DNA of 64,000 nt, from NCBI RefSeq assembly GCF_964204645.1, contig NC_134025.1, positions 24,346,299 to 24,410,298 of the forward strand, given 5' to 3'. A program made the translations under genes and the position numbers. The notes beneath the pieces were generated by a model. That model made no database searches, was not told the DNA's origin, and worked only from the letters and a program-made list of their open reading frames with translations. The stretch is from Tubulanus polymorphus (Eukaryota; Animalia; Nemertea). This document shows, piece after piece, positions 278 to 47,216 of the stretch (position 1 is the first letter of the stretch; every line of letters begins with the position of its first letter).

Positions 278-32970
<32,693 letters not shown>

Positions 32971-39308: not shown

Positions 39309-41337
39309 TCACCTCAACCACAGTTTTAATCTTAAGGCATCGACACCGTTTAGATAATATCGAAACAGTCGTTTATCTCGAACGAAGCCAAGGTTTTCGT
39401 ACAAGTGTAAGGCAGCTTTATTGGTTATTTCCGTTTCTAGCACAACCTGCAAAAGATTCGAATCAACATTGAAAATTGTATGCCTGATGATGGCTAATAG
39501 TCTTTAGCCGAAACGTTGCGCAAATATATATATTCCTCTATGCAAGTTTCTCGTTTTGGCTGAATTTATTGCGGGATTTCTCTCTTTATCATCTTACAGG
39601 GATATTATTGTATATCTTCTCGTCTCATAGAAAATTGTACTGTTCCGAAAAATTAGAGGTTATAATTTCGTTAGAATTAACAGTTTTTACTCTTAAGACG
39701 CGTACCTCATCACATTCATCGGCAACCATAGCTTTGATGGCTTTTAGTACCAATTGTGATCCTGTGTAGAAGAAAACAATGAAGAAAATTATTATTCCAC
39801 TACAAAAATGAAAGATGCAAAAGTCACGGCTGGGTACCGATACAACAAAGGATTGAAATATTTGGGATTGAGAGGGAGTCTTTTTATTCATGCTCCAACA
39901 AATGTTGCCTACCAATTTTTCTTCTTCTGTAATTGGAATCAACAGCTAACATAGCAATATATCCTCGTCTAACCATCTTCTTATGAAGATCCAGCTTACA
40001 GACAATGGCACCAATTGTAATATCACCATCCATAGCCTATATGAACCAAGAAAAAACTTGCTAATTTTTAAGATCATCTCATTAATTGGACAACTTGATC
40101 GGCAAGAAGATTTCTTCTCAGATTCAATTAGCATCAATCCATAATTTCTCAAAATCTATGAATGAAAATTGCGTTATATTCAGCTCAATTGAGTTTACCC
40201 TTATGTTTAATGTGGGTAGTTAAAAATCTAGATGCGAGTTTATTGAAAATGAACTGAATTCTGATCACCATCTAGCTGGTAGAACAGGGCCCTCATTCAT
40301 TTTTAATTGAGTTAGCTTAGGGGTTTAAGTTGAACCAGGCTCTATTAGAGCCAACCCCAAAAGCTCAAAAGTTGCTCAAAAGTTGGTTGGAGCTAACCAG
40401 TGGATAGTTGACGTAATGATAATTCAAAGTCCATTGTTACTGGGCCCAGTAGTTCAAAAACTTCTTCGGTGAATTGGTTGTTCCTTCACTATTTTAGCGC
40501 TTTACATTTGACATCAATCAAAAGGAGTGATATTTTCATTCAAACTTTTAGTGGAGATAAACTTACCAAAAAACACAGTTTCGGCCAATTGTGTATAAAA
40601 TACCGGTAAGTGTATATAGAATACGGTTCTGATAGGTCTTTAGTAATAAGCCTCATTATGTCAGGCATTTGTCTCTCCGATTCATACACAACATAACTAA
40701 TTTCACTGGTTGGAGCACTAATTTTTTGCGATTTCGACGACGATTCAGTTCTTTCCTCATCAGTCCTTTGTTTCGATTCGCTATCGTCTAAACTTAGCGT
40801 ACCTAGTTTCTGTTCCGTGTCTAACGTCACATCGTTAAGCACATCAGCTTTAGAACACTTTTGAACGCATGAATTCAAATGGGAGCATTCTAACGCGTTC
40901 GCCACCGATGATGGCTTTAAATTGTTTGTTGTCGTAGTTATCGACTTATCATTAGTCGATTGATCGCCGATGTGTTGATTATTGGATCCGATATTAATCG
41001 GCGTTAACACAGATATCGCTGAATTCACATGATCTGCAGTTTCATTCGTCACTTTTACTCTGTTGTTGGTTTTATGAGTTAAAAGTCCATTTTCAATAAT
41101 CGACTTATCATGATGTATGCTTACGAAACCGTTCATCATATTATTCTTAGTTTTGTGCGAAGATGAGTTATTACTGTGATTTTCATCAGCATTTTCTAAT
41201 AATTTAGTGGTGGTTTCATGGTCTGAAACAGATGATGATTGTGCCGTTTTTGTTGTTGGATCACCACAGGACGGGCGACAGTTGTCCGCGACAGCAAATT
41301 CCCCCTTTTGGACGTTTTGAGAGGGAATCCCGGACAT
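39309..41337 (-). CDS. NAA30: N-alpha-acetyltransferase 30 (NatC catalytic subunit), 362 aa
   Basis: Exons 41337-40567 (..[28 protein letters not shown]), 40036-39913 ([18 protein letters not shown]), 39761-39706, 39446-39309 ([45 protein letters not shown]). Confidence 0.97.
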
Positions 41338-42209
41338 AACGATGTAGTTTCGTTGAGGTTCTTCAAATCCTTCCTATCAATGGTCAAAATTAAGCTACAG
41401 AAACGGCCAGATGAACCAACAAATGTAGTTACTCCCTCAATATTTCTTCACTTCACTTCGGCAACCATTATTTTTCGCATGGGGTATATCCTATTCGCCG
41501 GTTGTGGACTTTGATTAGTGAATAAATAATTTGTATTTGAATTGAAATTCTGACTGAAAACTCAAGGTCGAAGACTGTGGTAAAATATTTTCATTAATTA
41601 CACAATTACATGGGTTAAAAAGTACTATAAAAGTGTAAGTTAAGTCATTAATTAGTCACTCATTTAGTACGGATATTGACCAATCAAAGAGACATCAGTA
41701 AGCAGTTTCATGTTCCACTCAACTTTACTCTGAGTTTGAGCTTTATTTAACTAGTCTAAAAAAGAGTTACGGACCAAGGCAAGACCAAGTCAACAGGTCT
41801 GGTCAAGTGGAAAATAATAAAATGGTCGTCTCAATTTTTCGGTTTAGTGAGTTTGAGTGGAACTTCCTTACAAAATAACGAACTTTAGGACGTGAGTGGC
41901 CACTTTAGGAGACCAGAAAATATGTCCGGTTGGGTTTGAATTAATGGTTCGTCATATCCATAAAATTATTAAAAATGGATTCTTAGTTCATAACCAATAG
42001 ATCCTTGTAATGGGGTTTCACTGATTTTCAGCAAATGAATTAGTTATTTTTTAAAATCTGCATGCATCTCTCTTTCAAAAAAACATGTCAATGGGTACGA
42101 ATATGTCTCTGGAAGAGTAAATTTAGTATTAGTCTGTGAGCATTTTGCCCAGGTTAGGTTTGATCTTTATCATATGTATCATATTTTAGAAATCCTTTAC
42201 TCAAGTACT

Positions 42210-42564
42210 ATGGCAGCTGCACCATCCCAGGCTGAAAGAAAAAAATGCTGGTTTGCCAGAGATCTCTACTGGAAATGTCTAGATGAGAACAATGATGATA
42301 AATCGAAATGCTTGAAATTAAGAGAGCAATTTGAAAACACTTGTTCTCTTTCATGGGTTGGCTTTTTCAAAATTTCCTTATTTGAATACTGATCTGTTTA
42401 TGATTGAGTTCTATTTTTGACATTTACTTTCTAATTGGCATTTCTTTACTCTGTAGGTGAAATACTTCGATAGAAGGAAAGGATATCTGAAGTTCAAAGA
42501 CAAAATGGAGAATGATGGATATGAACCAATAGATGGAGTTAAGAAGAAATCTGGAACATCGTGA
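42210..42564 (+). CDS. COA6: Cytochrome c oxidase assembly factor 6, 84 aa
   Basis: Exons 42210-42356 and 42457-42564: APSQAERKKCWFARDLYWKCLD..C..LREQFENTCSLSWVKYFDRRK, with CX9C/CX10C; AATAAA at 42619. Confidence 0.93.
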
Positions 42565-43110: not shown

Positions 43111-43494
43111 TAAGTATTTTATTTGATTTATCCTATACATTCGTATATGGATCAAATAAATTGGTATAAAAACAATACTTATTTAAATAAAGCTTAGATA
43201 ACATGAAAAACTAAATTTCTAAAATGGTAGCTATCTTCAATTCAACAGAACTTTAAAACAATTAAAACATTTGACGTTCTATGCATTCCGCAATAAATGA
43301 CCTAACATAAAACAATTTATAGATCAGACCTTCCATATTGAGGATTTAAAAGTTGACAATTGGAAAATTTTACCAAACTTGATTGAAAATAAAATATGTA
43401 CTCATGATCATATCTACACGTACAATAAAAACCATTAAATCTCAAATTTTACAGCAAATAAGCATTTACATAATGATATTAAAGTTTCATTGTG

Positions 43495-45038
43495 TTAGTC
43501 ACAATTATTAACATCACTGGAGACACATGAAATGATAGGTTTTATAAAACAACGTCTGAAATCTTTCTCAGACATTGTCTGAAAAACAACCGTTTCGAAA
43601 TTATCACAAACGAAATGATTCGCATGAAAATTAGCGCTGGTGATCAACACTTCGGCTTTATCGTCTTTCACACCAGCGATGAACTTACAATGAAATCGCT
43701 CGATTGGATAGATAATTTTCGAAAAAAAATGATACTCGATGTGTACTTGTTTATTAGGCAAGTACTCGTCTAGCAGCTCTTTTTTCAGCTGATGAATGGA
43801 TTTCGGATCATCGCACTTCTTTCGCACGTACATCGCCTCCAGTTCACCGGCGTTCACGTTGTTTCGGTTTGTCAGTAAAATATCGGCCACGTTCATCAAA
43901 CGATCCTTATCCAAAAAAGGAGTGACGATGAATGTCTTATATCCCTGACCGATCCATTTGTTCAACAGCGCCCGCCAAAGGGGATAGATGTATTTTTGTC
44001 CGTTTTTCACGCAACAATTCCTCAGCATTCTGAGCTCGTCTTTCAACTGTCCGGCAGTCAACTGAAAGAGATTTTACGGTAACAAACTTAAGAAAATCCA
44101 GATTTTGATAACTCATATATCTCTTTAACGCAGTTCTCCAGTACGAATGGAAAATTTGAGTGAACAAATCAAAATCCAAATGAACGTGCACAATTCTTTA
44201 TTGAGACTTCTCATAAACCAGGGGACAGTTGCTCAAAGGCTGTTTTGAGTTAAACAGTGGATAGTTGACATAGTGACAATTAAGAATTCATTGTTACTAT
44301 GGTATTCATCTACTGGTAAGGAAAACCAACTTTCGAGCAATTGGCCCCTGATGTGTAACTACTTATAGCGCTTACCATATCAAGATTAAGTGATTCCATA
44401 CAATTGACAATATCATCAATAGATACTGGTAATGTTTCAGCAGTTGCCGGTGGAGCTGGAGGTATTTCTTTTTCTGAATCTTAAAGAAATAAATGTTCAA
44501 CATTATACACTGGTAACTTCACGCTTTGAGTCCAATTTAGAATCTGAGTTTTGAGAAAAATACCTTTCTGTTCATGAATATTCACGTTGAAAGAAGCTCC
44601 TGGAACATATGCCGATATAATTTCATCAGCACCATTATTTATGGGATAAGACATCGGCTTCACTGGATTCAAAGGACAAGGAGCATCATATCGTTCTAAC
44701 AGTTCCAGAAATCGTCTTCGAAACCAATCCAATATGAATTGACCTTGGATCATAATTGTTCCTTTTTTCATGTACACTGTAATCGTAACATCTTCAGCTT
44801 TCAAAATCAATTTTTCAACTCCGACGTGGTCTTTGTGTTTTTTATATGGATATCGACTGGCTGGGAAATTGTTGGCATGCTGTAAGACTTTCACCCACAA
44901 AATAGCCAGCACAGTGGAGCCGCATTTCGACGAATGCTTCACTGAAATACAGGTCTGTTTCACCTCAAGGAACACTTTCTCCGCCGATTTTGCAGAGACA
45001 AACTTTTGAATTTCATACTCAATCGACTCGAAATCCAT
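43495..45038 (-). CDS. Uncharacterised 381-aa protein: TBP-like (DUF3378/RNase HIII-N-like) module plus a single-motif PLD-superfamily nuclease-like domain
   Basis: Exons 45038-44564, 44479-44376 and 44061-43495 join in frame. C-terminal IVTPFLD..RFHCKFIAG..VLITSANF..DNFET matches PLD S/TP, HxK, (G/T)SxN and NxE motifs. The N-terminal part has VTITVYMKKGTIMIQG..W. Confidence 0.8.
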
Positions 45039-45477
45039 GTTGTTTCAGTTGGAATGGGCTAAAAAGCGGAATAAAATACATTTAAATTCGATTTGTAGTA
45101 GGTTTTATTTAAAATTTGTTGAAAATGTTCAGCAGTTCACAATGTTCAGCAGCAGTTCACGACACAATTAACTTCCAGAAATCAGTGTGCTCTTAATTAA
45201 CTATCACCATCTTTTACTGGGTGCAATCAATGAGATTAAATGGTCGAAACTTACTTCATTCGGCTATTTTTCTTTTCAAAACCAAGCACTCGGCACGGCA
45301 TTTGTTTTGGTTGGTTACATGACAAAAAGGTTGGCTCCGAGACTGCGCGCTAGTGGCAACCAGTCTATTAGACGTTTTGACTGCGGCCGGAACCGGGGCC
45401 GAGTCCGTATTTCAGATGGTACCAATTTCAAAAAGGCAGAATCGAGAAATTATAGGAACTGACGTGAATAAAACAAG
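45039..45477. promoter_or_regulatory. Compact bidirectional promoter region with CCAAT/CHR-like motif
   Basis: Divergent ATGs 440 bp apart; GC-rich core at 45335-45405; accaatttcaaa at 45421-45432 (CCAAT plus reverse TTTGAA). Confidence 0.55.
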
Positions 45478-47216
45478 ATGTCTTCTGTATCAACAAATAC
45501 TGAAGAAAGCTGTAGTGATGTAACATTAGTAAAAACCGAGAAACAAAAAAATAATGTTGTATTGGTCGCTAAGAAAGACAACAAAATGAACAATAATCAA
45601 AAAGTATCATCAAAAATTACTCGGACGTTCAATGATCCGCTCAAAAAGGTTACGGTTACAAAAACTGCAAGCGCCACAAATGTGTCATCAAAACTTCACA
45701 GTCCGAAAAAGCTGGGCGCATTTTCCACTTCGAAAAAGGATCTTGCTTCAGTTGGAAAACGGAAAAGATTCGTCTCAAAGTCCAGTCCTACTATCACACA
45801 ATCACCGAAACGTAACCCGCTGAAAGCGAAATGTCGAATTGACTTCAGTATGAAGCCGGAAATCAAATTCTCAAACCAAAAAACATTTCCTGTTTCGGCA
45901 AAGAAAATCAATGTTAAGCAATCTACAATGGGGTGCGTTTTAACTGTTAGCTAGATTCACTTATTTCGAAGTAATAGCATTTGAAAAAAGCTTGAGTTCT
46001 GCGTAATTCTTTTCTAGATATTCACAACTTCGCCAAGCTGAGCTTGAACTGAGGCAAAAATATGAAGAACTAGAACTAAAAATGCGGACGACAGAAGAAA
46101 ACCACAAACTAATGGTATCAAATCTTGAAGATGAACTTCGCACATATCAGGTACCGGTATTGTAGACAAGATTGACTGAAATTTGGTAGCTCTTAAAAGT
46201 GGTGTATAGTTGTGAGCTATTAAAGATTTGTTTGCTCCGTGTCATGTGATTCCTGGTCTTCTACTCTAGGGGCAAGTTAAAGATCTTCAAGGTGAAAAGA
46301 ACGAACTTTTGGGTAAGAGAGAGCAGAATTTCAAATTTCGTGATTGAATGATGATTTAGATGGAGAGTATTTAGAAGATTTGCACTATCATTTTATTGTA
46401 GAAACATTATCAATTAAAGATGCTGAATATATAAAAAGTTCAACCGCACTTGGTAAAAAATTGTGAGTGAAAACCTTTGAATCACATGTTGTGTTGTCAT
46501 TTTATCTTTATTGTGATTTCGATGAAGCTGAATTTTTTCTGATTCAGAGAAATGTGTGAGAACAGATTGATTGAGCTTCAAATAGACCCTGGTATGGCAG
46601 TAAAGTTAAAATCTGAGCAAAAAACAAACTGCCTCTATGCGTATATTTTATTGATTTTATTTGTTTTAGTTTCATTGAAGAGTTTGAATGTGGAGCAACA
46701 GGAAAAAGAAAATGTTAATGAAATTCGTTTAAAGCAAAAGGTACCGTAGGCGTCATAGTTCCTTTCAATGACTACTCGAGTATAACCACAGCCTCGAATG
46801 AGCCTAGCACCAGATCCTTCACAAATGATGATGATGATGATTTTAATGTTACTGCAAACTCTCCTGGCAATCGATTCATTCATATACACATGTCTTGCTG
46901 CTGCTTTATAGGAACAAGCGAAAGTTCTACTCGATAAGCTGGAATTATTCACTCAGAAGACAAGCTCCTATCTATCATCAGTGGTAGCAGTGAACAAGGT
47001 ATCTTGACATTTAAATATTATGATTTAGAAGATTTCTGGAAATTCATTTGTTTACCATTGAGAATTTATCAATTGTTCGTTTAGGAAACGATTGCTGACG
47101 AAACATCGGAGATGAACTGCACAGATATAGACGTAAATCAAACTACGACTGATGATAATCATCGTCATGGACAAGTTTTATCAGTAGCTGACACAATTCA
47201 ACAAGAAAATGTTTAG
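45478..47216 (+). CDS. Basic low-complexity N-terminus plus coiled-coil protein, 341 aa, resembling SKAP/KNSTRN
   Basis: Exons 45478-45932, 46018-46150, 46270-46312, 46402-46462, 46548-46591, 46670-46740, 46912-46998 and 47085-47216 are all in frame (1026 nt), with AATAAA at about 47265. The gene model is firm; the identity is inferred from a remembered SKAP sequence pattern. Confidence 0.75.

Follow-up and report, generated by a model that had tools for sequence, protein, structure and literature searches.

The 64,000-nucleotide window analysed here, from the nemertean Tubulanus polymorphus (contig NC_134025.1, positions 24,346,299 to 24,410,298), contains a minus-strand gene of three exons whose product can be read as a soluble two-domain protein; its C-terminal phospholipase D (PLD) domain would homodimerise into one shared active site and would likely cut nucleic acid as Nuc, BfiI and SauUSI do, a proposition that we regard as evenly balanced. 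The joined exons (1146 nucleotides) encode 381 amino acids and a stop codon, and the protein is identical letter for letter to T. polymorphus XP_074658121.1 (LOC141911056), annotated "uncharacterized". A first-pass annotation made from the DNA letters had proposed that a domain resembling TATA-binding protein (TBP-like) is fused to a single-motif PLD nuclease, and its overall interpretation is partly supported. The gene is laid out as follows, in window coordinates.

44564-45038, minus strand: exon 1 (coding), with the ATG at 45038; N-terminal alpha/beta domain (residues 1-120) and start of the linker
44480-44563, minus strand: intron 1, 84 nucleotides, GT..AG, absent from the spliced contig of run X4
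44376-44479, minus strand: exon 2, a Pro/acidic linker, mostly of low model confidence, then a short helix
44062-44375, minus strand: intron 2, 314 nucleotides, GT..AG, absent from the spliced contig of run X4; contains a short high-copy repeat
43495-44061, minus strand: exon 3, the entire single-motif PLD domain (residues 194-381); the stop codon ends at 43495
43399-43494, minus strand: 3' untranslated stretch within the spliced contig; the true 3' end may differ

Both introns are precisely skipped by one contig of run X4, which spans 43399-44956 with the ATG outside it; a transcript is thereby implied, and the intact 381-residue gene first proposed from the letters is borne out by this contig and by the RefSeq identity. 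The exon joint was not seen in the other three of the four runs compared. Over the repeat in intron 2 (44218-44304) the summed contig depth of each of the four runs climbs into the thousands, while next to it the depth is in the tens.

In the predicted structure, residues 194-381 adopt the PLD alpha/beta fold of single-motif PLD/HKD nucleases and carry the catalytic H-x-K with the downstream Asn and Glu (H317, K319, N337, and E349), together with T-P-F-L-D at 240-244, R273, and S335. Motifs start at 84 (VTITVY), 105 (WF), 240 (TPF), 317 (HCK), 325 (KDD), 334 (TSANF), and 347 (NFE), and all those named earlier lie where they had been placed; T-S-A-N replaces the canonical G-S-x-N family-wide. 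A structure search with Foldseek, of the kind the first-pass annotation had called for, ranks PLD-fold nucleases first; Tdp1 structures match at E-values of 1e-3 to 1e-2. The best structural Z (13.8) is that of FAM83, and a viral fold library returns generic PLD proteins (best E 6e-6). The homodimer prediction scores 0.54 against 0.01 for the best control, a score to be read knowing that the predictor may be recalling solved PLD dimers; H317 of one chain contacts E349, S335, and N337 of the other in a single shared site. On this model the PLD-fold domain very probably forms a dimer. By the chemistry of the PLD family, cleavage of the phosphodiester would be metal-independent and pass through a phospho-histidine intermediate, with one His as the nucleophile and the His of the partner chain completing the reaction. 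For the nuclease claimed at first, fold and dimer stand by prediction and the nuclease action stays conditional.

The closest parallels in design are BfiI, R.NgoAVII, and SauUSI, for which the available text of the reports cited was used. The residues H317, K319, N337, and E349 were compared with the active site of BfiI/NgoAVII (PMC4267654), and the layout would be that of BfiI in reversed domain order, with a binding domain joined through an acidic tether to a dimeric PLD nuclease. The T. polymorphus gene differs in being animal and intron-containing and in having no methylase or ATPase partner, and its partner domain is N-terminal and TBP-like/helix-grip in place of a C-terminal B3 domain or a helicase-SRA module (PMC4267654, PMC7913695). 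The Asp position of HxKxxxxD is occupied by Val with KDD just after it, as had been noted; V, T, I, E, C, or M stands there in 54 of the 57 His-bearing rows of the family alignment described below. The four residues given for the active site of BfiI/NgoAVII in the available text do not include this Asp (PMC4267654), and SauUSI has Glu at that position (PMC4267654, PMC7913695), so that the missing Asp lowers membership of the motif but not the predicted chemistry. KDD was considered as a displaced catalytic Asp and rejected, since it is unconserved across the family (Asp at 326 in just 5/57 His-bearing rows). For BfiI, NgoAVII, and SauUSI it has been proposed that an acidic linker obstructs the active site (PMC4267654, PMC7913695); the Pro/acidic linker recognised in the first reading is confirmed at residues 121-190 (10 Pro, 10 acidic, 3 basic), and a net-acidic linker is present in 23 of 23 two-domain proteins of the family.

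Sequence profiles reach the protein faintly. Pfam finds only RE_NgoFVII (E 0.047) and DUF3378 (E 0.13) on the window exons, with no family covering the protein, and searches of the PDB, by phmmer with each exon and with two family profiles, return no chain even at an E limit of 10. Among relatives, PLDc_2 matches 10/86 (best E 8e-5) and the Tdp1 family 3/86, weakly; the nearest bacterial profiles, ZacB and DrmC, both of defence PLDs, match 15/81 and 12/81. A lipid-acting enzyme (phospholipase or transphosphatidylase), with the N-domain as a KA1/START-like dock on acidic membranes, is decidedly improbable beside this evidence: nucleases top the Foldseek ranking, the weak profile links are with DrmC, RE_NgoFVII, and Tdp1, not with lipid enzymes, and an amphioxus-type branch of the family (P0089, P0104) has an intact PLD domain followed by CCHC zinc knuckles, without a detectable N-domain. 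These knuckles tie the family independently to nucleic acid, which is the somewhat favoured substrate. The 381 residues show no signal peptide, and their N-terminus is a folded soluble domain; the peak 19-residue hydropathy is only 0.91, so no membrane anchor is apparent, in agreement with the original description, and this too counts against a lipid-acting enzyme.

The family is unnamed in Pfam, NCBIfam, and the literature searched. A full HMMER search from exon 3 yielded 112 representatives with E no higher than 0.001, and one Mercenaria protein from a separate search brings the alignment to 113 rows; taxonomic naming covers 31 proteins, 30 of the representatives and the Mercenaria protein. 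Those with a named source are all from animals, and all are called uncharacterised, hypothetical, or unnamed. They come from the nemertean, the annelid Owenia, the brachiopod Lingula, the flatworm Macrostomum, the hemichordates Ptychodera and Saccoglossus, amphioxus, the bivalves Mercenaria, Sinanodonta, and Argopecten, and the gastropods Haliotis, Babylonia, Biomphalaria, and Patella; no named arthropod, nematode, or vertebrate match is among the 31. NCBIfam yielded no family member (four single weak matches among 23), and the literature nothing on the family or on a TBP-like and PLD fusion, within a scope that stopped short of supplements (e.g., the domain tables of PMC3710099 and PMC7221094) and most subscription journals. 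In word-index protein searches (two proteins, then one, and a third limited to proteins of 801-2285 amino acids) no long fusion appeared in that size range, long fusions and N-domain-only relatives being barely sampled.

Full-length proteins split into three groups. The window protein belongs to group A, whose members have both domains. A further spiralian paralogue, likewise present in Tubulanus and Lingula, makes up group B; its N-domain and that of A are homologous (96% probability by hhalign). Group C, intronless and distant, has an N-domain with only a weak link (28%). Lingula carries both A and B types, both without the His. The Tubulanus paralogue XP_074645235 also has a homologous N-domain and no catalytic His, and is a candidate regulatory or heterodimer partner. 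Short unnamed matches often start with intron-tail-like sequence just before the PLD domain (nine rows by pattern) and are thus taken to be single exons sharing the exon 3 boundary, which is seemingly common to bivalve-type relatives. About 14 unnamed single-exon fragments, nearly all catalytically intact (P0019, P0022, P0024, P0026, P0029, P0033, P0040, and kin), cluster on a quick tree and may be a lineage-specific expansion. That tree holds 94 of the 113 rows, those shorter than 120 amino acids being dropped, and has no outgroup, so the origin of the family cannot be read from it.

The active site is covered in 104 of the 113 rows: 51 keep H, K, and N, three keep H and K only, and 50 are without H or K. 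Where the His is present the other residues are present with it (K319 in 54/57 rows, N337 in 52/57, D/E349 in 56/57, R273 in 45/55, an aromatic at 242 in 40/46), and in rows without it they are much rarer (14/48, 7/47, 23/47, 4/42, and 6/40, respectively); W229 and D244 persist even then. The label of active or dead switches about ten times on the quick tree, with at least four switches forced by strong branches. Among the 11 named genera of group A, the His is kept in Tubulanus, Owenia, Mercenaria, and Argopecten, and lost in Sinanodonta, Lingula, Macrostomum, and all four gastropod genera. Such losses invite the explanation that the proteins are mainly scaffolds or adaptors like the FAM83 pseudo-PLDs, with partner binding as the task of the PLD dimer and the conserved N-domain, and catalysis as a leftover that can be done without and that the nemertean copy happens to retain. 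We consider this rather unlikely, as copies that retain H317 also retain K319, N337, E/D349, R273, and an aromatic at 242, which suggests long selection on a working site in the nemertean, annelid, bivalve, hemichordate, and amphioxus copies. The T. polymorphus copy, with its complete, co-selected site, is probably active. Natural pairs of active and dead orthologues (Mercenaria and Sinanodonta; bivalves and gastropods) offer a ready test of the passage from enzyme to pseudoenzyme, parallel to FAM83.

Animal PLD-fold nucleases already known include Zucchini/PLD6, PLD3/4, and Tdp1, and Zucchini/PLD6 has an N-terminal mitochondrial membrane anchor. Compared with Zucchini and with Nuc/NucT, the T. 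polymorphus protein is without signal peptide, anchor, or canonical Asp and has an extra N-terminal domain; Zucchini/PLD6 orthology is not supported by the PDB chain searches, and the tree held no Zucchini sequences. FAM83 and many relatives in the present family are alike in having no catalytic His. In the available text of PMC6008594, which places PLD6 in mitochondria, FAM83 is vertebrate-only with an N-terminal DUF1669 and without the His except in FAM83D, whereas here the domain is C-terminal and the His is present; nor does the list of 14 Pfam families for 86 members contain DUF1669. On these points the protein differs from both, as had been claimed. If the nuclease reading is true, it would be a further soluble animal PLD-nuclease lineage with the layout of a bacterial restriction nuclease, spread across several invertebrate phyla.

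The N-terminal domain is predicted with high confidence (predicted local distance difference test 95-98 across residues 1-120). Its assignment to the TBP-like/helix-grip type, as first suggested, is plausible but weak (DUF3378 at E 0.13). As predicted, it resembles the N-domain of RNase H3 (DUF3378) and the TBP-like domains of RnlA in the available descriptions, with a helix, an antiparallel sheet, and a helix, an aromatic, and a Gly (PMC4132731, PMC7221094, PMC3710099, PMC3597702), and it is likewise fused at the N-terminal side of a nuclease-type domain. Y89 and G99, picked without residue-level superposition, are the candidate stacking aromatic (L5.1) and hybrid-contacting Gly; G99 is invariant in 23/23 two-domain proteins and position 89 is aromatic in 12/23. 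Binding of RNA:DNA hybrids is doubtful; were it so, this would be the first RNase H3-type domain so used in animals, as far as found.

Least certain of all is what the protein does in the animal. One specific form of the nuclease reading is a cytosolic sensor-nuclease of DrmC/restriction-type bacterial descent, in which the TBP-like domain would detect RNA:DNA hybrids (retroelement or viral intermediates) and free the dimeric nuclease from an acidic-linker brake, dead copies serving as regulators or decoys, possibly through heterodimers; this is quite improbable. An H-x-K ... ITSANF stretch is common to the family and to DrmC of the DISARM system (89% probability by hhalign over 32 columns), and one DrmC model is matched by 12/81 members, at E 5e-4 for the best. 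DrmC, a candidate, dispensable nuclease in the text available (PMC9142583), has the HxKxxxxD Asp and sits in a drmA-drmB operon, in contrast to the spliced animal gene with Val. The DrmC profile does not match the window protein at E 0.1, and P0001 and P0003 have no PADLOC match. A single-pattern scan of genome contigs, a narrow test of prokaryotic absence, gave one prokaryotic locus, drmC in a drmA-drmB-drmC operon. Of the bacterial-defence ancestry first proposed, the nearness of DrmC and ZacB among bacterial profiles stands; since the DrmC likeness does not extend beyond the stretch around the active site, it does not establish ancestry.

Metagenome contigs yielded 15 loci of group C (L001-L015), five sharing one assembly prefix; frameshifts occur in four, of which two are identical, an internal stop occurs in one, and 13/15 keep an intact catalytic pattern. 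The intronless family copies are flanked in L004 by open reading frames for TNFR cysteine-rich and ZU5 domains (5872-6483, 18707-19348, and 19602-20684) and in L008 by one for a Death domain (2741-3298). The pattern resembles turnover of a multi-copy animal gene in the neighbourhood of immune-type genes, in a host that may be cnidarian-like. Ratios of nonsynonymous to synonymous substitution in four intact copies are 0.20-0.32 in the PLD domain and 0.29-0.65 in the N-domain; these copies are under purifying selection, looser in the N-domain, with no positive selection seen in them. In L002, 1 kb downstream of the family copy and in animal-like DNA, a 400-residue open reading frame (4008-5207) has a beta-lactamase-family Pfam domain (E 7e-19).

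The intronless, multi-copy, and partly broken state of this distant clade, and the unnamed, mostly viral clusters that the Atlas gives for the PLD domain (feature score 0.94), could suggest a domesticated transposon (ORF1-like) or viral gene. The chance of this is slight: no flanking repeats beyond chance occur in the window (repeat libraries were not searched), no long open reading frame scoring as a transposable-element protein adjoins the family gene there or in L001-L015, 50,697 phage records and three scans of viral contigs gave no match, and the exon 3 boundary is apparently common to bivalve-type relatives. PHROGs likewise gave no member (two single weak matches among 81), and no member of the family showed a transposable-element or viral setting. 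The lack of flanking repeats and the housekeeping genes beyond the 3' end of the gene both count against the ORF1 ancestry first offered. The neighbours on both sides are these.

39628-41373, minus strand: GNAT acetyltransferase gene whose N-terminus is long and of low complexity, beyond the PLD gene 3' end; presumably resembles the NatC subunit NAA30
42039-42560, plus strand: COX6B-family small protein (Pfam E 2.5e-16), converging on the PLD gene beyond its 3' end; presumably resembles the assembly factor COA6
45472-47200, plus strand: Lys/Ser/Thr-rich multi-exon coding stretch, divergent, starting about 430 nucleotides upstream of the PLD gene ATG

This setting, without a second family copy in the window, would also suit a phosphodiesterase with a housekeeping task in repair or end processing, Tdp1-like or related to R-loops, that trims blocked ends by the same chemistry in another role; the Tdp1 matches in structure and profile, and Ogg1-type glycosylases, in which TBP-like domains occur, among the matches of the N-domain, point the same way. 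Repeated catalytic loss fits an essential role poorly, and with no arthropod, nematode, or vertebrate among the named proteins the explanation is highly improbable. Several points also weigh against the two-domain nuclease reading: besides the possible recall behind the dimer score, the N-domain identity is weak, and the family, to judge by its sequences and the available account of FAM83, often dispenses with catalysis as FAM83 does. The evidence for an immune role is weak and indirect, and the T. polymorphus gene itself shows no turnover like that of group C. An immune or anti-transposon role is held as tentative and on the unlikely side.

The divergent Lys/Ser/Thr-rich stretch has no significant Pfam match and may share a promoter with the PLD gene. 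Two further features lie near the start of the window, where the receptor is possibly nested in an intron of the larger gene.

459-2214, minus strand: large gene with a SPRY domain, on the strand opposite the receptor; we take it to be ryanodine-receptor-like
4664-5968, plus strand: rhodopsin-family G-protein-coupled receptor open reading frame (Pfam E 1e-44)
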